A DNA stretch of 64,000 nucleotides from assembly GCF_055900595.2 (NCBI RefSeq), contig NZ_CM148325.1; one strand, written 5' to 3'. Positions 50,685-64,000 of this stretch are shown here, one piece after another. Each line of letters opens with the position of its first letter. Positions within the stretch are counted from its first letter, which is position 1. The notes beneath the pieces were generated by a model that searched no databases, had not been told where the DNA came from, and was given only the letters and a program-made list of their open reading frames with translations. Both the position numbers and the translations under genes were made by a program.

Positions 50685-51039
50685 AAAGTCCTGTCCAGAA
50701 AGAAGTCGGCCTCGCAAAAATGAATAAACCCAGTTTCTCTTGCGCAACAGGTGGAGAAGTCGAATACGCAGTATGTAAAAAATGAGGCAATAGATTCACT
50801 GGGGAGGTCGCGAGGAGGCGCAATTCTACAAAATTGCGCATTTCACTACCAGTCTGGAGTCAGCCCGGATATGAACTGCAACTATTGCAAATAAAGAAAT
50901 TAAGCTGGAAGGTATCACGCAATGAGGAAGGTTGCCGGGTGCTGACGGTAAAAAGCAATCGTAAAATCAGCGGCAAGCCGGAAAGGTTCCGGTGAGGCGC
51001 AATGTTGCGGGGGCTTAATCCCTGGTGGCATTGGTTGCT

Positions 51040-51112
51040 GGAGAGAGAAAACCCCCGCACGTTGCAGATATTCACCTGACAACATCACGGGGGCTAATCT
51101 TGAACCTAGACC
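51040..51112 (-). ncRNA. rdlD: putative Rdl antisense RNA, copy 1 (approximate ends)
   Basis: Minus-strand GC stem (CCCCCG...CGGGGG) followed by UUUUCUCUCU, opposite the ldr leader; inferred from LDR locus organisation. Confidence 0.35.
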
Positions 51113-51159
51113 ACTCAAGAATAGCCGCGAAACGTTGTCATTACAACACAGGCGGCTAT

Positions 51160-51267
51160 ATGACGCTCGCAGAACTGGGCATGGCCTTCTGGCATGATTT
51201 AGCGGCTCCGGTCATCGCTGGCATTCTTGCCAGCATGATCGTGAACTGGCTGAATAAGCGGAAGTAA
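51160..51267 (+). CDS. ldrD: Ldr-family type I toxin, copy 1 (35 aa)
   Basis: MTLAELGMAFWHDLAAPVIAGILASMIVNWLNKRK; closest to K-12 LdrD as recalled. Confidence 0.85.
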   Translation: MTLAELGMAFWHDLAAPVIAGILASMIVNWLNKRK

Positions 51268-51522
51268 CGTGTCAGACGGGCGTCAGGCTGCCGTAATGGC
51301 AATTTGCGCCCGGACCAGGCCGCAGGGATAAAACTCTGCGGCCTTTTTCGTAAGAAAAATGCAACGGTTGCAAGCGGATAATATTCTGCGGAATGCGCAG
51401 CACAGAGTGAAGAAGTGACGGATTCCGGAACAGAAAAACAGTCGTAGAATCAGCGGCAAGCCGGAAGGGTTCCGGTGAGGCGCAATGTTGCGGGGGCTTT
51501 ATCCCTGGTGGCATTGGGTGCT

Positions 51523-51595
51523 GGAGAGAGAAAACCCCCGCACGTTGCAGGTATGCACCTGACAACACCACGGGGGCCATTCTTGCATCCAAACA
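51523..51595 (-). ncRNA. putative Rdl antisense RNA, copy 2 (approximate)
   Basis: Same element one repeat unit downstream. Confidence 0.35.
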
Positions 51596-51642
51596 ATACA
51601 AGAATAGCCGCGAAACGTTGTCATTACAACACAGGCGGCTAT

Positions 51643-51750
51643 ATGACGCTCGCAGAACTGGGCATGGCCTTCTGGCATGATTTAGCGGCTCCGGTCATTG
51701 CTGGCATTCTTGCCAGTCTGATCGTGAACTGGCTGAATAAGCGGAAGTAA
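51643..51750 (+). CDS. Ldr-family type I toxin, copy 2
   Basis: MTLAELGMAFWHDLAAPVIAGILASLIVNWLNKRK (M26L relative to copy 1). Confidence 0.85.
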   Translation: MTLAELGMAFWHDLAAPVIAGILASLIVNWLNKRK

Positions 51751-52006
51751 CGTGTCAGACGGGCGTCAGGCTGCCGTAATGGCAATTTGCGCCCGGACCA
51801 GGCTGCAGGGATAAAACTCTGCGGCCTTTTTCGTAAGAAAAATGCAACGGTTGCAAGCGGATAATATTCTGCGGAATGCGCAGCACAGAGTGAAGAAGTG
51901 ATGGATTTCGACGAGCAAAAATGGCCGTAGAATCAGCGGCAAGCCGGAAGGGTTCCGGTGAGGCGCAATGTTGCGGGGGGCTTTATCCCTGGTGGCATTG
52001 GTTGCT

Positions 52007-52079
52007 GGAGAGAGAAAACCCCCGCACGTTGCAGGTATGCACCTGGCAACACCACGGGGGCCATTCTTGCATCTAGACC
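52007..52079 (-). ncRNA. putative Rdl antisense RNA, copy 3 (approximate)
   Basis: Same element. Confidence 0.35.
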
Positions 52080-52126
52080 ATTCAAGAATAGCCGTGAAAC
52101 GTTGTCATTACAACAGAGGCGGCTAT

Positions 52127-52234
52127 ATGACGCTCGCAGAACTGGGCATGGCCTTCTGGCATGATTTAGCGGCTCCGGTCATCGCTGGCATTCTTGCCAG
52201 TCTGATCGTGAACTGGCTGAACAAGCGGAAGTAA
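52127..52234 (+). CDS. Ldr-family type I toxin, copy 3
   Basis: Identical peptide to copy 2. Confidence 0.85.
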   Translation: MTLAELGMAFWHDLAAPVIAGILASLIVNWLNKRK

Positions 52235-52489
52235 CGTGTCAGACGGGCGTCAGGCTGCCGTAATGGCAATTTGCGCCCGGATCAGGCCGCAGGGATAAAA
52301 CTCTGCGGCCTTTTTCGTAAGAAAAATGCAACGGTTGCAAGCGGATAATATTCTGCGGAATGCGCAGCACAGAGTGAAGAAGTGACGGATTCCGGAACAG
52401 AAAAACAGTCGTAGAATCAGCGGCAAGCCGGAAGGGTTCCGGTGAGGCGCAATGTTGCGGGGGCTTTATCCCTGGTGGCATTGGTTGCT

Positions 52490-52562
52490 GGAGAGAGAAA
52501 ACCCCCGCATATTGCAGGTATGCACCTGACAACATCACGGGGGCCATTCTTGAACCTACACA
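52490..52562 (-). ncRNA. putative Rdl antisense RNA, copy 4 (approximate)
   Basis: Same element. Confidence 0.35.
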
Positions 52563-52609
52563 ACTCAAGAGTAGCCGCGAAACGTTGTCATTACAACACT
52601 GGCGGCTAT

Positions 52610-52717
52610 ATGACGCTCGCAGAGCTGGGCATGGCCTTCTGGCACGATTTAGCGGCTCCGGTCATTGCTGGCATTCTTGCCAGTCTGATCGTGAACTGGC
52701 TGAACAAGCGGAAGTAA
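52610..52717 (+). CDS. Ldr-family type I toxin, copy 4
   Basis: Identical peptide to copy 2. Confidence 0.85.
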   Translation: MTLAELGMAFWHDLAAPVIAGILASLIVNWLNKRK

Positions 52718-52972
52718 CGTGTCGGACGAGCGTCAGGCTGCCGTAATGGCAATTTGCGCCCGGACCAGGCCGCAGGGATAAAACTCTGCGGCCTTTTTCG
52801 TAAGAAAAATGCAACGGTTGCAAGCGGATAATATTCTGCGGAATGCGCAGCACAGAGTGAAGAAGTGACGGATTCCGGAACAGAAAAACAGTCGTAGAAT
52901 CAGCGGCAAGCCGGAAGGGTTCCGGTGAGGCGCAATGTTGCGGGGGCTTAATCCCTGGTGGCATTGGTTGCT

Positions 52973-53045
52973 GGAGAGAGAAAACCCCCGCACGTTGCAG
53001 GTATGCACCTGACAACATCACGGGGGCTAATCTTGAACCCAAACA
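52973..53045 (-). ncRNA. putative Rdl antisense RNA, copy 5 (approximate)
   Basis: Same element. Confidence 0.35.
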
Positions 53046-53092
53046 ACTCAAGAATAGCCGCGAAACGTTGTCACTACAACAGAGGCGGCTAT

Positions 53093-53200
53093 ATGACGCT
53101 CGCAGAACTGGGCATGTCCTTCTGGCATGATTTAGCGGCTCCGGTCATTGCTGGCATTCTTGCCAGTCTGATCGTGAACTCGCTGAATAAGCGGAAGTAA
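53093..53200 (+). CDS. Ldr-family type I toxin, copy 5 (variant A9S, W30S)
   Basis: MTLAELGMSFWHDLAAPVIAGILASLIVNSLNKRK; loss of the C-terminal-region Trp may affect activity. Confidence 0.7.
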   Translation: MTLAELGMSFWHDLAAPVIAGILASLIVNSLNKRK

Positions 53201-53286
53201 CGTGTCATGCGGGCGTCAGGCTGCCGTAATGGCAATTTGCGCCCGGATCAGGCCGCAGGGGTGAAACTCTGCGGCCTTTTTCGTTC

Positions 53287-54966
53287 TTATTGCGGGTAAG
53301 GCACCCAGTCGCCGCCGTTCAGGCGAACGTACGGTTTATCCTGGTATTGAATAACTACTGCATTTGAGTTCTCGGAGACCGGTGCTGTTTGTGGCAACCC
53401 ACTGGTGAGTTTTTTCCAGTCAACATTGTCTTCGGTGAAAATCTTACCATCAAGAACGCGAACCACCAGATCGGAGATAGCCAGGAAGCTGCTCGGTTGG
53501 TCGATGACAATCGGTGCCCCCTGATGTGGTGCCTTCATGCCGAAGAATTTCACCCCAACGGGGACGTCTGTGATAGACGGGCTAGGGATATCACGTAGGC
53601 CAGATACCTGCATTCTGTCGCCCTTCAGCGCGCCACCGTGTTCCGGCACCACTACCACCATCACTTTACGACCCGATTTCTCCAGTTCAGTAAAGAAGGC
53701 GTCCAGCTCATCAAAGAATTTCTGCGCTCGCGCTTTGTAATCCGCTGTTTTGCTGACGCCCGGATAATGGTTGCCGTCATGCAGTGGAAGCGTGTTATAG
53801 AACGTGGCACTACGGCTGTTTTTATCTTTTTCGGTAACGTCCAGCCAGCGGTTAAGCACGGCGGTATCGTCATAAACCGGCGAACCATCAAAGCCCAGCA
53901 AAATAACCGGCAGATTTGTTTGATCCATCAATTCGGTCTGCATGCCGCCATTTTCGCGAACTTCTTTCAAAAAACCGCCGAACTGGCCGTTATGTCCCAT
54001 CATCAGGTGCTGGGTAAAGCCCAGTTTCGACAGGTTATCAAACAGATAGCAGTCGTTATTTGCCGGTTGATACAGATTAGTGTGCGAAGTCTGCCCGCAG
54101 CTGGCGCGCAGTAAACGGATCGCCGCCGGGCCACTGTAGGAGGTGGCGGAGTTAAAGTTCTTGAACTCAATATCGAAATGCGACCACAGCGGATGCGACA
54201 TCAACCCGGCGGCTTCAATATCCGACCAGGAAAGCGAACAGATATTAATCACCAGTAGTTCAAATGGCTGAGCATCAGCGGGCAGCGAAGACGGGAAGGT
54301 CGATTTACGTTTCGCCTCCGCGTTATAGAAATTATTCAGCCAGGCGTTAAGGTTCGCCGTTGTGGGCGGTGCAGTTTGTGCGGGCATATCACCCACTACC
54401 GGTGCGCCACCCGTCGCCGCAACGGTTGCCGCTGCGTTACCACCCGTCGTTGTTACAGTGGTCGTCGGTTGACCGGCAGGCCACAAGGAGAAACTTGGTC
54501 CCGCCAGGGTAAGTACGTTCAGCCATAGCAGAATGGCAACCACAAAAACGGTAATGCGAATCCATTGTGACAGGAATAACCAGGCCACTAATAAAACAAA
54601 AATGGCCCCAATCATCTGCCAGTTAATAAAGCGTGTGACAAGGTCGATTAAATAATCGGTACTGAACCCCGCCACCTGCGAACCCTGGCTCATTATGCTT
54701 TCCGGGCCAGGCAACCAGGTGTCATGCCAGAACAAAGCAAAGCCGATCGGCAGGGCAATCCAGTGGCGTAAGCGATGCAGGCTGTAGCGCGGAATGGGCA
54801 TCAGCAGAAACGCGGCAAACACCAGATTGAGGAGCGGATGGAAGTTAAGATATCCCGCCCACAACAGGCCGAACTTAACCAGAAAATAGAAGTTCCAGCC
54901 GGAAAGGCCGCGCCAGTATTGCCAGAGGGAAGAAGGCATGGCGGTATTTTGCGTAAATTGAGTCAT
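53287..54966 (-). CDS. bcsG: cellulose biosynthesis protein BcsG (phosphoethanolamine transferase for cellulose modification)
   Basis: 559-aa [45 protein letters not shown]... Confidence 0.9.
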
Positions 54967-55154
54967 TTTTTGGTTGCCCTGGCTTTTTCCGTGCGGCGTA
55001 ACGTCCCGGCCGGTTTAACATAACGAGGTTTAGCAAAGAACAAACGTAAGGTGTCGCGAATGCGTCGCAAAGAGTGCCGCGCCAGATAGCCCAGCGGGAA
55101 AAATATCAGTGCGCAAACGACAATAATTTCAATGATATCGCTGATGGTCATCAT
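54963..55154 (-). CDS. bcsF: cellulose biosynthesis protein BcsF (small membrane protein)
   Basis: 63 aa [63 protein letters not shown]; ATGA overlaps with bcsE and bcsG. Confidence 0.85.
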
Positions 55155-56722
55155 GATGAGCGCTCCACAGCATCATCTAACAGTCGCATTGGTTCTGGTA
55201 TTCTTCGCCAGTGGCGACCATCGTGCTCGGCATTGATGACCGGTTTAGAACTTTGCGTTAAAGGCAGCGGCATGCCCCATTGTTCTGGGGCAAGCAGGCG
55301 CATCTGCACCAGCTCGGCACTGATTTGATCATCTTCAAACCAGACCATACGGTTTGAGAAAATGTCGCCAGTCGGCAATGGGAAAATATGATTCAACGCG
55401 GTATCCAGATCGTTAATCCGACAGAATGAGAGAAACAGCACCAGCCGATTACCGCCAATGGTCATGATATCGCCGGTACGGTTAGGGCGACACAGCGTCA
55501 GGGCTTGCTCAACGCGGATACCCGGTACCGGACGTAGGGCAACCAGAACGCCTTTACCATGTGCAGGCAAGAGAGGGTTATTCATCATGTTGTTAACGGC
55601 ATTACAGAACACATCCCACTTCTGGAAACCACGTAGTTTGAGCGGCTGGGTCATTGACAGCAAGGTAGTGATATCTTCCGGCACATAGCGACTAAACTTC
55701 TGCCCTTGCACGCTTTCTATCATCGTCAGACAGCGGGAGAGTGGCGCATTCCACGGGATAACCATATTTGCACCGCAGGCCAATAACAAACGTTCATCGG
55801 TGGCGCGCAGGCTTGCGGTATTTTCCCGTACGAGGATTTTCATCGCACTACCGCGCTGGCGACGCAGAGTATGAATGCTGCGGGCCAGTGGCTCGATTTG
55901 CGCATTTTGCTGTAAAGAAAAGACCACCGTCGCCGCCTGAGCGGTACGGGCTTCATTGAACAGAACTTCGTTATTGTTGAACAGTTGCCAGTGTTCCGAT
56001 AGCGGCGGCGCACCTTCCAGTACAGCAACATTACTCAGAATGCGTTTTTCGTCGCTGCGTGGTTGGATCTCCGCCTCTTCGCTTTGAACTAATGTCCAGA
56101 TACCTTTTTGTTGCTGAACGCTAAGCTGCTGACGGGCGCTGACCCCTTTTTCGTTGCACCAGAAGGCAATATCCAGCAAATGTTGGTCGCCCTGAAAACG
56201 CAAACTGGCAAGACCAAAAAGTGAACGGTATTCCTCAAGCAACAATGAAAATTGTTTATCGTTATTATTTCCGGGATTAATTACCAAAAGCGAACAATGG
56301 TTTAACCTGCTCCATTTATTCATTTTATCCAACCATGAGCGAAGCCGCTCGGCAGGAATGTTTTGCCATGCGTTATTTGCGCAAACAAGAATAAAAAGGT
56401 AATTATTGGGATCAATAGAACACTGCAAATCACGGGCCAAATAGTATAGACCTTTTTCATGATTTAGCATTGAAAATAATTTTATTTTTTCCGGCCCTTG
56501 AGAATCATCTAATTGAAAGATTTTCGCCGGATCGCTGTCCATGCTAATGACCGCGACGTGTGCGGTTTCAGCCTGGGATGCAATTGTTTGATTCGCCAGA
56601 CTGATAGCATCTTCATGGCGATCGACGTTAAACCACCAGACGCCGCCTGCTGGCATATGTCGCAGCTCATCCCATAATGATGAGATACCGATAGAGAATA
56701 CAGGGTCCACAATGTCCCTCAT
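55151..56722 (-). CDS. bcsE: cellulose biosynthesis protein BcsE (c-di-GMP-binding GIL domain)
   Basis: 523-aa [48 protein letters not shown]... Confidence 0.9.
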
Positions 56723-56993
56723 GTCACCATTTTGTCTGATTATCAGTTTACTAGCGAAAGCTAAGAAATAAACCTACCATTGAAATTAAAACTTATCAGA
56801 TTTAGCATGTGAATCAATTTAGCAGGTCACAAGACGTGTGATTTTAGTCTTTTCGTTTTTAACTTTTTTTGTTGCGTAACGGAAAGTCAAAAAGTGAGCA
56901 AATTCCCGTCTCGCCGTAAACAATAAACCGGCGAAATGCTCACGGTTAGAATTGTCTCATGAACGGTACGGTTATTTCATAGGGATCAAGCAA
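56723..56993. promoter_or_regulatory. Divergent bcsEFG / bcsRQABZC promoter region
   Basis: 271-bp AT-rich gap between divergent start codons. Confidence 0.5.
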
Positions 56994-57182
56994 ATGAATA
57001 ACAATGAACCAGATACTCTGCCTGATCCCGCGATAGGCTATATCTTCCAGAATGATATTTTGGCGTTAAAGCAGGCATTTTCACTGCCTGATATTGATTA
57101 TGCCGATATTTCCCAACGCGAACAGTTGGCCGCGGCATTAAAACGCTGGCCGTTGCTGGCAGAGTTTGCGCAACAAAAGTAG
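56994..57182 (+). CDS. bcsR: cellulose biosynthesis regulator BcsR (YhjR)
   Basis: MNNNEPDTLPDPAIGYIFQNDILALKQAFSLPDIDYADISQREQLAAALKRWPLLAEFAQQK (62 aa) from internal ATG of the 76-aa track ORF. Confidence 0.85.
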   Translation: MNNNEPDTLPDPAIGYIFQNDILALKQAFSLPDIDYADISQREQLAAALKRWPLLAEFAQQK

Positions 57183-57193
57183 GGGATTGGTGA

Positions 57194-57945
57194 ATGGCCG
57201 TACTGGGATTGCAGGGGGTGCGGGGAGGCGTGGGAACAACAACCATCACTGCCGCATTAGCCTGGTCATTACAAATGTTGGGAGAAGATGTCCTGGTGGT
57301 CGATGCCTGCCCGGACAACTTGTTGCGCCTGTCATTTAACGTTGATTTTACCCACCGTCAGGGCTGGGCCAGAGCCATGCTGGACGGTCAGGACTGGCGT
57401 GACGCCGGGTTGCGCTATACCTCGCAACTCGATTTGCTGCCTTTTGGTCAGTTATCCATTGAAGAACAAGAAAATCCACAGCACTGGCAAACCCGGCTGA
57501 GCGATATTTGCTCCGGCTTACAGCAACTAAAAGCCAGCGGGCGTTACCAGTGGATTTTAATCGACTTACCGCGTGATGCCTCGCAGATAACCCACCAGCT
57601 GCTGAGTTTGTGCGATCACTCGCTGGCAATCGTCAATGTGGATGCCAACTGCCATATCCGGCTGCATCAGCAGGCGCTGCCGGATGGCGCGCATATTTTG
57701 ATTAATGACTTCCGTATCGGCAGTCAGTTCAGGACGATATTTACCAGCTTTGGTTGCAAAGCCAGCGCCGATTACTGCCAATGCTCATTCATCGTGATGA
57801 AGCGATGGCTCAATGCCTGGCGGCTAAGCAACCAGTCGGTGAATACCGCAGTGATGCGCTGGCGGCTGAAGAGATACTGACGCTGGCTAACTGGTGCCTG
57901 TTGAACTATTCCGGGCTGAAAACGCCAGTCGGGAGTGCATCATGA
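57194..57945 (+). pseudogene. bcsQ: bcsQ (ParA/MinD-like ATPase) disrupted by a 1-bp deletion frameshift
   Basis: ORF 57194..57880 reads BcsQ for 179 aa through ...HILINDFRIGSQ then goes out of frame; the BcsQ C-terminus (VQDDIYQLWLQSQRRLLPMLIHRD...LKTPVGSAS) continues in the +2 frame to 57945; 179 + 71 = 250 aa, the intact length. Junction at about 57727/57728 (CAGTCAG|TTCAGG, one G short of CAGGTTCAGG). Confidence 0.8.
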
Positions 57946-60560
57946 GTATCCTGACCCGGTGGTTGCTTATCCCGCCGGTCAACGCGCGGCTTATCGGGCG
58001 TTATCGCGATTATCGTCGTCACGGCGCGTCGGCTTTCAGCGCGACGCTCGGCTGTTTTTGGTTGATCCTGGCCTGGATTTTTATTCCGCTGGAGCACCCG
58101 CGCTGGCAGCGTATTCGCGCAGAACATAAAAACCTGTATCCGCATATCAACGCCTCGCGTCCGCGTCCGCTGGACCCGGTCCGTTATCTCATTCAAACCT
58201 GCTGGTTACTGATCGGTACATCGCGCAAAGAAACGCCGAAACCGCGCAGGCGGACATTTTCAGGTCTGCAGAATATTCGTGGACGTTACCATCAATGGAT
58301 GAACGAGCTGCCTGAGCGCGTTAGCCATAAAACACAGCATCTCGATGAGAAAAAAGAACTCGGCCATTTGAGCGCCGGGGCGCGGCGGTTGATCCTCGGT
58401 ATCATCGTCACCTTCTCGCTGATTCTGGCGTTAATCTGCGTTACCCAGCCGTTTAACCCGCTGGCGCAGTTTATCTTCCTGATGCTGCTGTGGGGTGTAG
58501 CGCTGATCGTACGGCGGATGCCGGGGCGCTTCTCGGCGCTAATGTTGATTGTGCTGTCGCTGACCGTTTCTTGCCGTTATATCTGGTGGCGCTACACCTC
58601 TACGCTGAACTGGGACGATCCGGTCAGTCTGGTGTGCGGGCTTATACTGCTGTTCGCTGAAACGTACGCGTGGATTGTGCTGGTGCTCGGCTACTTCCAG
58701 GTGGTATGGCCGCTGAATCGTCAGCCGGTGCCATTGCCGAAAGATATGTCGCTGTGGCCGTCGGTGGATATCTTTGTCCCGACTTACAATGAAGATCTCA
58801 ACGTGGTGAAAAATACGATTTACGCCTCGCTGGGTATCGACTGGCCGAAAGACAAGCTGAACATCTGGATCCTCGATGACGGCGGCAGGGAAGAGTTTCG
58901 CCAGTTTGCACAAAACGTGGGGGTGAAATATATCGCCCGTACCACTCATGAACATGCGAAAGCAGGCAACATCAACAATGCGCTGAAATATGCCAAAGGC
59001 GAGTTCGTGTCGATTTTCGACTGCGACCACGTGCCGACGCGCTCATTCCTGCAAATGACCATGGGCTGGTTCCTGAAAGAAAAACAACTGGCGATGATGC
59101 AGACGCCGCATCACTTCTTCTCACCGGACCCGTTTGAACGTAACCTGGGGCGTTTTCGTAAAACGCCGAACGAAGGCACGCTGTTTTATGGTCTGGTGCA
59201 GGATGGCAACGATATGTGGGACGCCACCTTCTTCTGCGGTTCATGTGCGGTGATTCGCCGTAAGCCGCTGGATGAGATTGGCGGCATTGCTGTCGAAACG
59301 GTAACCGAAGATGCGCATACTTCTCTGCGTTTGCACCGTCGTGGCTACACCTCTGCATATATGCGTATTCCGCAGGCGGCGGGGCTGGCGACCGAAAGTC
59401 TGTCGGCGCATATCGGCCAACGTATTCGCTGGGCACGTGGGATGGTGCAAATCTTCCGTCTTGATAACCCGCTCACCGGAAAAGGACTGAAGTTCGCGCA
59501 ACGGCTCTGCTACGTCAACGCCATGTTCCATTTCTTGTCGGGCATTCCACGGCTGATCTTCCTGACTGCGCCGCTGGCTTTCCTGCTACTTCATGCCTAC
59601 ATCATCTACGCGCCAGCGTTGATGATCGCTCTGTTTGTGCTGCCGCATATGATTCACGCCAGCCTGACCAACTCGAAGATTCAGGGCAAATATCGCCACT
59701 CCTTCTGGAGTGAAATCTACGAAACGGTACTGGCGTGGTATATCGCGCCACCGACGTTGGTAGCGCTGATTAACCCACATAAAGGCAAATTTAACGTCAC
59801 CGCCAAAGGTGGACTGGTGGAAGAAGAGTACGTCGACTGGGTGATCTCACGGCCCTACATTTTCCTGGTATTGCTCAACCTGGTCGGTATTGCGGTCGGT
59901 ATCTGGCGTTACTTCTACGGCCCGCCAACCGAGATGCTCACTGTCATCGTCAGTATGGTGTGGGTGTTCTACAACCTGATTATTCTCGGTGGTGCGGTAG
60001 CGGTATCGGTAGAAAGCAAACAGGTTCGCCGATCGCACCGCGTGGAGATGACGATGCCCGCGGCAATTGCCCGCGAAGATGGTCACCTCTTCTCGTGTAC
60101 CGTTCAGGATTTCTCCGACGGTGGTTTGGGGATCAAGATCAACGGTCAGGCACAGATTCTGGAAGGGCAGAAAGTGAATCTGTTGCTTAAACGCGGTCAG
60201 CAAGAATACGTCTTCCCGGCCCAGGTGGCGCGCGTGATGGGTAATGAAGTTGGGCTGAAATTAATGCCGCTCACCACCCAGCAACATATCGATTTTGTGC
60301 AGTGTACGTTTGCCCGTGCGGATACATGGGCGCTCTGGCAGGACAGTTACCCGGAAGATAAGCCGCTGGAAAGTCTGCTGGATATTCTGAAGCTCGGCTT
60401 CCGTGGCTACCGCCATCTGGCGGAGTTTGCGCCTTCTTCGGTGAAGGGCATTTTCCGTGTGCTGACTTCTCTGGTTTCCTGGGTTGTATCGTTTATTCCG
60501 CGCCGCCCGGCGCGGAGCGAAACGGCACAACCATCGGATCAGGCTTTGGCTCAACAATGA
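57942..60560 (+). CDS. bcsA: cellulose synthase catalytic subunit (GT2 with PilZ domain)
   Basis: Start at MSILTRWLLIPPVNARLIGRY gives 872 aa; GT2 motifs (DDGGREE, DCDH, QRIRWARG/QxxRW) and C-terminal PilZ. Confidence 0.97.
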   Translation: MSILTRWLLIPPVNARLIGRYRDYRRHGASAFSATLGCFWLILAWIFIPLEHPRWQRIRAEHKNLYPHINASRPRPLDPVRYLIQTCWLLIGTSRKETPKPRRRTFSGLQNIRGRYHQWMNELPERVSHKTQHLDEKKELGHLSAGARRLILGIIVTFSLILALICVTQPFNPLAQFIFLMLLWGVALIVRRMPGRFSALMLIVLSLTVSCRYIWWRYTSTLNWDDPVSLVCGLILLFAETYAWIVLVLGYFQVVWPLNRQPVPLPKDMSLWPSVDIFVPTYNEDLNVVKNTIYASLGIDWPKDKLNIWILDDGGREEFRQFAQNVGVKYIARTTHEHAKAGNINNALKYAKGEFVSIFDCDHVPTRSFLQMTMGWFLKEKQLAMMQTPHHFFSPDPFERNLGRFRKTPNEGTLFYGLVQDGNDMWDATFFCGSCAVIRRKPLDEIGGIAVETVTEDAHTSLRLHRRGYTSAYMRIPQAAGLATESLSAHIGQRIRWARGMVQIFRLDNPLTGKGLKFAQRLCYVNAMFHFLSGIPRLIFLTAPLAFLLLHAYIIYAPALMIALFVLPHMIHASLTNSKIQGKYRHSFWSEIYETVLAWYIAPPTLVALINPHKGKFNVTAKGGLVEEEYVDWVISRPYIFLVLLNLVGIAVGIWRYFYGPPTEMLTVIVSMVWVFYNLIILGGAVAVSVESKQVRRSHRVEMTMPAAIAREDGHLFSCTVQDFSDGGLGIKINGQAQILEGQKVNLLLKRGQQEYVFPAQVARVMGNEVGLKLMPLTTQQHIDFVQCTFARADTWALWQDSYPEDKPLESLLDILKLGFRGYRHLAEFAPSSVKGIFRVLTSLVSWVVSFIPRRPARSETAQPSDQALAQQ

Positions 60561-60570
60561 TGATAACGCG

Positions 60571-62910
60571 ATGAAAAGAAAACTATTCTGGATTTGTGCA
60601 GTGGCTATGGGGATGAGTGCGTTCCCCTCTTTCATGACGCAGGCGACGCCAGCAACGCAACCACTGATCAATGCTGAGCCAGCTGTAGCCGCCCAGACGG
60701 AACAAAATCCGCAGGTGGGGCAAGTGATGCCGGGCGTGCAGGGCGCTGATGCCCCCATCGTGGCGCAGAACGGTCCTTCGCGTGATGTGAAGCTGACCTT
60801 TGCGCAAATTGCGCCACCGCCGGGCAGCATGGTGCTACGTGGCATTAACCCGAACGGCAGCATTGAGTTTGGTATGCGCAGCGATGAAGTGGTGACGAAG
60901 GCGATGCTCAACCTCGAATACACGCCATCGCCATCGTTACTGCCTGTCCAGTCGCAGTTAAAGGTTTATCTCAATGATGAACTGATGGGCGTGCTGCCAG
61001 TGACCAAAGAACAGTTGGGTAAAAAAACGCTGGCACAAATGCCAATTAACCCACTGTTTATTACCGACTTCAACCGTGTGCGGCTGGAGTTTGTCGGTCA
61101 TTATCAGGACGTGTGCGAAAACCCGGCCAGCACCACGCTTTGGCTGGATGTTGGGCGGAGCAGTGGACTGGATCTGACCTATCAGACCCTGAATGTGAAG
61201 AATGATCTGTCACACTTCCCGGTACCATTCTTTGACCCGCGTGATAACCGCACCAACACCTTGCCGATGGTCTTTGCGGGTGCGCCGGATGTTGGGCTGC
61301 AACAAGCATCTGCCATTGTCGCCTCGTGGTTTGGTTCGCGTTCTGGCTGGCGTGGGCAGAACTTCCCGGTGCTCTATAACCAACTGCCGGATCGCAATGC
61401 CATCGTTTTTGCCACTAATGACAAACGCCCGGACTTCCTGCGCGATCATCCGGCGGTAAAAGCCCCGGTGATTGAGATGATCAACCATCCACAGAATCCT
61501 TACGTCAAACTGCTGGTGGTCTTTGGTCGTGACGACAAAGACCTGTTGCAGGCAGCGAAAGGTATCGCTCAGGGTAACATGCTGTTCCGTGGTGAAAGCG
61601 TGGTAGTGAATGAAGTGAAACCGCTGCTACCGCGTAAGCCGTACGATGCGCCGAACTGGGTGCGTACCGATCGTCCGGTCACCTTTGGTGAACTGAAAAC
61701 CTATGAAGAACAGTTACAATCCAGCGGTCTTGAGCCAGCAGCGATTAACGTTTCGCTAAACCTGCCGCCGGATCTCTACCTGATGCGCAGTACCGGCATT
61801 GATATGGATATCAACTATCGCTACACCATGCCGCCGGTGAAAGACAGTTCGCGGATGGATATCAGCCTGAATAACCAGTTCCTGCAATCCTTCAACCTGA
61901 GCAGTAAACAGGAGGCGAACCGCCTGCTGCTGCGTATTCCGGTATTACAAGGTCTGCTGGATGGCAAAACGGATGTCTCTATTCCGGCGCTGAAACTGGG
62001 CGCGACCAACCAGCTGCGCTTCGACTTTGAGTATATGAACCCGATGCCGGGCGGTTCGGTGGATAACTGCATTACCTTCCAGCCGGTGCAGAATCATGTG
62101 GTGATTGGTGACGACTCCACCATCGACTTCTCGAAGTATTACCACTTCATCCCGATGCCGGATCTACGCGCCTTTGCTAACGCGGGCTTCCCGTTCAGCC
62201 GGATGGCGGATCTGTCACAAACCATCACCGTGATGCCGAAAGCGCCTAACGAAGCACAGATGGAAACCTTGCTGAATACCGTTGGCTTTATCGGTGCGCA
62301 GACGGGCTTCCCGGCGATTAACCTGACGGTGACCGATGATGGCAGCACCATTCAGGGCAAAGATGCCGACATCATGATCATCGGTGGTATCCCGGACAAA
62401 CTGAAAGACGACAAGCAGATCGACCTGTTGGTGCAGGCGACCGAAAGCTGGGTGAAAACGCCGATGCGCCAGACCCCGTTCCCCGGCATTGTGCCGGACG
62501 AGAGCGATCGCGCGGCAGAAACTCAATCAACGCTGACCTCTTCCGGTGCGATGGCAGCGGTGATTGGCTTCCAGTCGCCGTATAACGACCAGCGTAGCGT
62601 GATTGCGCTGCTGGCAGATAGCCCACGCGGTTATGAAATGCTTAACGATGCGGTGAACGATAGCGGCAAACGCGCCACCATGTTCGGCTCGGTCGCGGTG
62701 ATCCGCGAGTCCGGTATCAATAGCCTGCGTGTTGGCGACGTCTATTACGTTGGCCATCTGCCGTGGTTCGAACGCTTATGGTATGCGCTGGCAAACCATC
62801 CGATTCTGCTGGCGGTGCTGGCGGCAATCAGCGTCGTGCTGCTGGCCTGGGTACTGTGGCGTTTGCTGCGTATTATCAGCCGTCGTCGTCTTAACCCGGA
62901 TAACGAGTAA
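60571..62910 (+). CDS. bcsB: cellulose synthase periplasmic subunit (c-di-GMP-regulated co-polymerase)
   Basis: Start at MKRKLFWICAVAMGMSAFPSFMTQA gives 779 aa; C-terminal TM anchor. Confidence 0.95.
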   Translation: MKRKLFWICAVAMGMSAFPSFMTQATPATQPLINAEPAVAAQTEQNPQVGQVMPGVQGADAPIVAQNGPSRDVKLTFAQIAPPPGSMVLRGINPNGSIEFGMRSDEVVTKAMLNLEYTPSPSLLPVQSQLKVYLNDELMGVLPVTKEQLGKKTLAQMPINPLFITDFNRVRLEFVGHYQDVCENPASTTLWLDVGRSSGLDLTYQTLNVKNDLSHFPVPFFDPRDNRTNTLPMVFAGAPDVGLQQASAIVASWFGSRSGWRGQNFPVLYNQLPDRNAIVFATNDKRPDFLRDHPAVKAPVIEMINHPQNPYVKLLVVFGRDDKDLLQAAKGIAQGNMLFRGESVVVNEVKPLLPRKPYDAPNWVRTDRPVTFGELKTYEEQLQSSGLEPAAINVSLNLPPDLYLMRSTGIDMDINYRYTMPPVKDSSRMDISLNNQFLQSFNLSSKQEANRLLLRIPVLQGLLDGKTDVSIPALKLGATNQLRFDFEYMNPMPGGSVDNCITFQPVQNHVVIGDDSTIDFSKYYHFIPMPDLRAFANAGFPFSRMADLSQTITVMPKAPNEAQMETLLNTVGFIGAQTGFPAINLTVTDDGSTIQGKDADIMIIGGIPDKLKDDKQIDLLVQATESWVKTPMRQTPFPGIVPDESDRAAETQSTLTSSGAMAAVIGFQSPYNDQRSVIALLADSPRGYEMLNDAVNDSGKRATMFGSVAVIRESGINSLRVGDVYYVGHLPWFERLWYALANHPILLAVLAAISVVLLAWVLWRLLRIISRRRLNPDNE

Positions 62911-62916
62911 TTGAAG

Positions 62917-64000
62917 ATGAATGTGTTGCGTAGTGGACTCGTGACGATACTGCTGCTGGCTGCCTTTAGTGTTCAGGCAGCCTGCAACTGGCCTGCCTGG
63001 GAGCAGTTCAAAAAGGATTACATCAGTCAGGAAGGGCGCGTCATCGACCCCAGCGACGCGCGCAAAATCACCACCTCCGAAGGGCAAAGTTACGGCATGT
63101 TCTTTGCCCTGGCGGCTAACGACCGTGCAGCTTTCGATAATATTCTCGACTGGACGCAGAACAATCTCGCTCAGGGTTCTTTAAAAGAACATTTGCCCGC
63201 CTGGCTGTGGGGCAAGAAAGAGAACAGTAAGTGGGAAGTGCTGGACAGCAATTCGGCCTCTGATGGTGATGTCTGGATGGCCTGGTCGTTGCTGGAGGCG
63301 GGGCGTTTGTGGAAAGAGCAGCGTTATACCGACATCGGCAGCGCGTTGTTAAAACGTATTGCGCGGGAGGAAGTGGTGACGGTGCCTGGGCTGGGTTCCA
63401 TGTTGTTGCCGGGCAAAGTGGGATTTGCTGAGGATAACAGCTGGCGTTTTAACCCCAGCTACCTGCCGCCGACGCTGGCGCAGTATTTCACCCGCTTTGG
63501 CGCGCCGTGGACTACGCTGCGCGAAACCAATCAACGTTTATTGCTGGAAACCGCCCCGAAAGGCTTTTCGCCAGACTGGGTGCGCTATGAGAAAGACAAA
63601 GGCTGGCAGCTAAAAGCCGAAAAAACATTGATCAGCAGCTACGACGCTATCCGTGTTTACATGTGGGTAGGCATGATGCCTGACAGCGATCCGCAAAAAG
63701 CGCGGATGCTCAACCGGTTTAAACCGATGGCGACATTCACCGAGAAAAACGGCTATCCGCCGGAAAAAGTCGATGTGGCTACGGGGAAAGCGCAGGGTAA
63801 AGGACCGGTCGGTTTTTCTGCCGCCATGTTGCCCTTTTTACAAAACCGCGATGCACAGGCCGTTCAGCGCCAGCGCGTGGCCGATAACTTTCCCGGCAGC
63901 GATGCCTATTACAACTATGTGCTGACCCTGTTTGGACAAGGCTGGGATCAACACCGTTTCCGCTTCTCGACAAAAGGTGAGTTATTACCTGACTGGGGCC
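62917..64000 (+). CDS. bcsZ: endo-1,4-beta-glucanase (GH8 cellulase); 3' end beyond window
   Basis: Translation from ATG 62917 gives [69 protein letters not shown]...; no stop within window. Confidence 0.9.

Follow-up and report, generated by a model that had tools for sequence, protein, structure and literature searches.

Cellulose secretion in Escherichia coli is 'absolutely dependent' on BcsR and BcsQ (PMC7840130). BcsQ is a SIMIBI (MinD-like) ATPase in which a seven-stranded sheet is held between helices. Three of its residues, N152, R156 and N171, have a part in ATP binding and in dimerisation, and in crystals of the protein every residue is ordered except roughly 10 at the C-terminus (PMC7840130). 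BcsR and BcsQ each act as a chaperone for the other, and the PilZ domain of BcsA is buttressed by BcsQ (PMC11470070).

Several natural alleles are known in which this pathway is lost. In E. coli K-12, the bcsQ null allele is a change of codon 6 from TTG to TAG, and the strain is cellulose-negative; reversion of that codon to TTG gives the cellulose-proficient strain AR3110 (PMC7397504, PMC4287979). The 2011 O104:H4 outbreak strain, which makes no cellulose, carries a frameshift in bcsE caused by a C inserted at codon 448 (PMC4287979). In 2024, Nhu et al. described 27 independent bcs loss-of-function mutations within ST95 (PMC10881479). Among these alleles, BcsQ Q178* was found in 24 ST95 strains and classed as loss of function. 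The same survey counted 74 of 76 common E. coli sequence types (STs) with mutations that disrupt bcs genes, together with every Shigella ST examined and 90 of the 100 Salmonella STs; in its supplementary table, bcsQ is truncated in almost every sampled strain of ST32, ST405 and ST11 (PMC10881479).

Here we report a further disrupted allele of bcsQ. The DNA analysed, hereafter called the window, is a stretch of 64,000 nucleotides from contig NZ_CM148325.1 (assembly GCF_055900595.2), in which bcsQ occupies 752 bases (57194..57945, + strand). We conclude that a deletion of one base (GG to G, codons 178/179) is genuine and clonally inherited, and that it has very probably made bcsQ a pseudogene in a lineage related to cryptic clade I.

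The surroundings of the gene are those of a normal cellulose locus. The order bcsG-F-E, divergent from bcsR-Q-A-B-Z, agrees with that of annotated E. coli relatives, and bcsQ lies between bcsR, the first gene of the bcsRQABZC operon, and bcsA (Table 1). The divergent bcsEFG operon spans 53287..56722 on the - strand. For the genes at the right-hand edge we turned to a carrier assembly that shares 16.8 kb with the window without a single difference: there bcsZ (368 aa) and bcsC (1157 aa) are both intact. Within the window, the deletion in bcsQ is the only disabling lesion in the bcsRQABZ and bcsEFG genes.

Table 1. Features of the bcs locus, with positions counted from the first base of the window.
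Feature	Position	Strand	Remarks
bcsG	53287-54966	-	559 aa, intact; length as in reference annotation
bcsF	54963-55154	-	63 aa, intact; length as in reference annotation
bcsE	55151-56722	-	523 aa, intact; length as in reference annotation
bcsR (yhjR)	56994..57182	+	62 aa, without internal stop; same position annotated bcsR in the nearest genomes
Frameshifted bcsQ ORF	57194..57880	+	ATG start, 228 codons, TGA at 57878-57880
1-bp deletion site	57727..57727	+	G of codon 178 (CAG, third base) or of codon 179 (GTT, first base)
Out-of-frame bcsQ remnant	57727..57945	+	Native V179-S250, 72 codons plus TGA; N-terminal part no longer joined
Spacer, premature bcsQ stop to bcsA	57881..57941	+	61 nt, newly untranslated
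bcsA, cellulose synthase catalytic subunit	57942..60560	+	872 aa, intact; annotated bcsA in the nearest genomes
bcsB	60571-62910	+	779 aa, intact
bcsZ	from 62917, open to window end at 64000	+	Window stops before bcsZ and the overlapping bcsC start are complete

Profile searches assign the gene to the BcsQ family (NF007460 / TIGR03371, Pfam PF06564; SIMIBI MinD-like ATPase). As intact references we used the alleles of strains Z0117EC0005 and E200086, which encode the 250-residue protein WP_032185391.1. All 752 window bases are identical to these alleles, and the sole difference among the 753 columns of the alignment is a gap at column 534. The intact sequence CAGGTT reads CAGTT in the window, a single G being left at 57727 where the intact alleles have GG. 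An earlier note on this DNA had ascribed the frameshift to a single-base deletion and had proposed alignment to intact bcsQ as a check; the one-G gap and the two frames mapped below bear it out. The intact sister allele matches crystallised E. coli BcsQ (PDB 6YBU, chain A) over residues 1-250 with 556.7 bits, and the window gene is this allele minus one G.

The deletion divides the coding information between two overlapping frames. The first begins at the normal ATG and encodes native residues 1-178, ending in GSQ at Q178, followed by 50 out-of-frame residues (179-228), FRTIFTSFGCKASADYCQCSFIVMKRWLNAWRLSNQSVNTAVMRWRLKRY, a tail rich in Cys, Trp and Arg. The second frame stays open between 57709 and its TGA (57943-57945); it overlaps the shifted frame by about 170 nt and contains an internal TTG at 57754. 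The native protein is accordingly split 178 + 72, and the 179 + 71 of the earlier note gave the correct sum of 250 with the boundary misplaced by one residue. The same note had the shifted frame ending at 57880, as it does; the 62 bp that it counted from there to the bcsA ATG are in fact 61 nt.

The NCBIfam model NF007460 aligns with the 228-aa ORF only over positions 1-180 of its 250, and the score of 379.9 bits falls short of the curated cut-off (399); with the remnant frame it aligns over positions 178-250. Against the same model the intact sister allele reaches 539 bits. Against the broad BcsQ model TIGR03371, the remnant C-terminal piece by itself scores 70 bits. Because the match is only partial and falls below the cut-off, so that the window ORF yields no full-length BcsQ profile match above it, what the window holds is a disrupted bcsQ gene and not a full-length member of the family.

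How does this lesion compare with those already described? Like the K-12 allele, it affects one nucleotide of bcsQ, near the start of bcsRQABZC, but K-12 has a stop at codon 6 and the window a 1-bp deletion at codons 178/179. Codon 6 of the window gene is TTG (ATG GCC GTA CTG GGA TTG) and the K-12 TAG is absent. The window lesion is independent of the K-12 stop, a separate event; the earlier note, citing the intact codon 6, had offered this as one of its two readings. The two also differ in what they leave upstream of bcsA: in K-12 almost the whole of bcsQ goes untranslated, whereas in the window only 61 nt do.

With Q178* of ST95 extraintestinal strains (ExPEC) the lesion has its codon in common, and both truncations of BcsQ are inherited clonally. 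There the lesion is a nonsense codon and here a frameshift, and the ST95-type bcsQ allele is identical to the window background at only 727 of 753 bases. The O104:H4 outbreak strain shares with the window a one-base insertion or deletion in an accessory bcs gene with the synthase genes intact, although its mutation is an inserted C at codon 448 of bcsE and that of the window a base deleted from bcsQ. The window lineage is kin to cryptic clade I ST485, which lies outside the 76 STs of the survey cited above (PMC10881479). The window allele was not found in the searchable literature, where the supplementary data of PMC10881479 name the truncated gene for each ST and not its position. The alleles of that survey were defined by premature truncation of one of nine bcs genes, and bcsQ of the window is prematurely truncated in just this sense. 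It is one further event in the published, repeated loss of bcs function: real but ordinary.

That the mutation is real had been questioned at the outset, the earlier note having allowed for a sequencing error at the GG run. On such a reading, the true genome would have GG and an intact bcsQ of 250 codons. A single-base difference in a two-base run invites that suspicion, as does the absence of the deletion from RefSeq complete genomes: a 71-nt probe spanning the site found no match of at least 99% among 5262 complete E. coli genomes, and in all the best matches listed for it the alignment has a one-base gap. Even so, 94 contigs (NCBI, ENA and Logan) of a public protein collection carry precisely this 228-aa product, which is indexed there in 125 blocks; the intact allele WP_032185391.1 is recorded there on 584 contigs.

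We inspected eight of the carrier assemblies, which come from different submitters. They comprise the NCBI/ENA assemblies GCA_964249055.1, GCA_965260545.1, GCA_052587505.1, GCA_902827765.1, GCA_029846055.1 and GCA_050170535.1 and two Logan assemblies of separate runs (DRR298295 and ERR10124996), the assemblies standing in for raw reads. The seven carriers that were compared base by base differ from one another by two SNPs, by the number of repeats in bcsC and by an extra G in bcsA; GCA_964249055.1 was compared over 6.7 kb only and is identical to the window there. The lesion is common to several distinct isolates of one lineage. A two-base run, moreover, is not a typical site of homopolymer error, and no other indel relative to the nearest relatives was found over approximately 63 kb of the window: in the comparison with E200086, 33.4 kb of the window contain 5 mismatches and the bcsQ gap, and another 29.6 kb contain 299 mismatches and not one gap. 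An artefact of sequencing or assembly is, on this evidence, exceedingly improbable. We take the deletion as genuine, and it is the derived state of bcsQ, since the 5262 RefSeq complete genomes lack the deleted form.

Two of the differences among carriers deserve description in their own right. The repeat in bcsC is the 6-nt sequence GGCGCA, about 1.6 kb past the right end of the window, and is present in one or two extra copies in some carriers; BcsC stays in frame, with lengths of 1157, 1159 and 1161 aa. The extra G in bcsA belongs to GCA_902827765.1, at a position equivalent to window 59381, and breaks the gene into ORFs of 507 and 372 aa. This insertion may have struck an operon that was dead before, a second hit of the kind to be expected once selection on the bcs locus is relaxed, or it may be an assembly error.

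Which lineage carries the allele? The nearest complete genomes are E200086, 100117, 100248, E400634, E500002 and E600003. [quoted passage not shown] From 30649 onward the window and these genomes are 99.98% identical; to the left of that point identity is about 99.0-99.2%. Judged by this pattern of identity, the carrier is a clone related to, yet distinct from, the cryptic clade I ST485 genomes. None of the MLST genes falls within the window, and a literature search with the carrier assembly and run accessions found no paper. The change relative to the ST485 genomes is sharp (99.0% to 99.98% at about 30650) and looks like a recombination boundary. At the same place, between glyS and hokA, E200086 has an IS150 that the window lacks.

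What would the deletion do to cellulose synthesis? The truncated product would keep residues 1-178, and with them Walker A and the residues that contact ATP (N152, R156 and N171). It would lose the last 72 residues, and residues 179-250 are conserved across the BcsQ family, as the score of the C-terminal piece against TIGR03371 attests. With this loss and the addition of the 50-residue aberrant tail, a working BcsR2Q2 complex would not be expected to form. A single-sequence AlphaFold2 model of intact BcsQ (mean pLDDT 44) was too poor for structural elements of residues 179-250 to be assigned. Since secretion needs both BcsR and BcsQ, and each stabilises the other, a strain without working BcsQ is predicted to make no pEtN-cellulose.

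The other bcs genes are still intact in most carriers. A recent loss fits this, although intact genes would equally fit a locus that is still under some selection.

Could function be kept by recoding or as a split protein? The layout of the two frames provides an opening for such a reading. The native C-terminal frame is open from upstream of the deletion, overlaps the shifted frame and has a TTG that might serve for initiation. Either a -1 ribosomal frameshift or transcriptional slippage could in principle restore the full protein, or a C-terminal fragment with an initiation of its own could reassemble with the first 178 residues; the intact downstream bcs genes would be in keeping with both. 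We consider this very improbable. The ORF contains no slippery heptamer of the form X_XXY_YYZ, and no homopolymer of five or more bases lies near the site. Nor is the shifted arrangement conserved, the nearest relatives and the RefSeq complete-genome matches having the plain in-frame gene. A programmed -1 frameshift was rejected as a candidate for these reasons, namely the missing heptamer and the in-frame bcsQ of the relatives. As for a split protein, no SIMIBI ATPase is known to us that works in two pieces, which counts against it.

A milder version of the argument accepts that the deletion is real and holds that it only weakens the system: BcsQ(1-178) might have partial or altered activity, so that cellulose would be reduced or re-regulated and not abolished. 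The stub does retain Walker A and the three ATP-contacting residues (PMC7840130), the rest of the bcs locus is intact in most carriers, and two other natural lineages have stops very close by, Q178* lying 2 nt before the deletion and Q180* 4 nt after it. The 72 missing residues, however, are conserved in the family and ordered in the crystal structure, and the tail that replaces them is foreign to the protein. Q178* itself is treated in the literature as loss of function (PMC10881479), and in one carrier bcsA, too, appears to have been hit, as relaxed selection would allow. We regard partial activity as unlikely and favour complete loss of BcsQ function.

The neighbouring truncations raise a question of their own. 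The protein cluster that holds the frameshifted product was built around a 179-aa representative, which favours products of that length, and our tally covers 40 of its 94 members. In these 40, a 177-aa form of BcsQ, on 125 contigs, corresponds to Q178* (CAG to TAG) in the ST95-type allele, and a 179-aa form, on 25 contigs, corresponds to Q180* (CAG to TAG) in a third allele. Together with the G deletion of the window at codons 178/179, these make three independent point lesions within 7 nt, and they sit in three allele backgrounds that are 2.5-3.5% apart. In yet another lineage the end of an IS1 falls at about codon 173 of bcsQ and gives a 181-aa product ending in GDAANLLI. Codons 173-180 correspond to window positions 57712-57733. 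All four lesions would leave Walker A, N152, R156 and N171 in place.

Codons 178-180 could on these grounds be a preferred truncation point, either through selection for a BcsQ(1-178) stub with residual or dominant activity or through a mutationally fragile site, but we think this doubtful. The clustering may be the product of chance together with the sampling bias of the cluster. By a rough estimate, three lesions within three codons would have about an even chance of arising if at least some 20 independent bcsQ truncations exist in nature.

Apart from its effect on BcsQ, the deletion might affect expression of the genes downstream. In the intact locus the bcsA ATG (57942) overlaps the bcsQ stop as ATGA. 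With the new stop at 57880 this stop/start overlap is lost, as the earlier note had said, and bcsA would lose translational coupling to bcsQ while keeping a Shine-Dalgarno-like sequence of its own, GGGAG at 57928-57932, which lies within the spacer six bases 5' of the ATG. A promoter and terminator scan of 56700-58200 found neither a promoter nor a terminator-like site between the new bcsQ stop and bcsA, and the counts for the scanned region were close to shuffled expectation. When the 61-nt spacer is folded together with the bcsA start, the predicted RNA structure does not exceed shuffled sequence in stability (z = -0.61); the best structure pairs the Shine-Dalgarno-like sequence, at this ordinary energy. 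As bcsA keeps that site and only 61 nt without a terminator-like site go untranslated, polarity on bcsA is probably mild at most. The main defect would be the loss of BcsQ itself.

If these predictions hold, one clone of E. coli related to clade I is unable to make pEtN-cellulose. Such a loss would change the biofilm morphotype of the clone, and by analogy with the work on ST95 (PMC10881479) the innate immune response of the host to it might change too. The allele adds one independent event to the repeated loss of cellulose in enterobacteria. For annotators, the implication is that the frameshift should be retained as a true pseudogene and bcsQ should not be 'corrected'.

Two minor features of the region may be recorded. 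Between yhjV and bcsG, at 50950-53284, lie five tandem type I toxin ldr units (35-aa Ldr toxin genes); the copies are about 483 bp apart and approximately 95% identical, and several short-read assemblies of the carrier clone break there. In bcsB, codon 337 (61579-61581) is ATG (Met) in the window and ATT (Ile) in E200086, and this missense change is the only substitution between the two across the bcsRQABZ genes.
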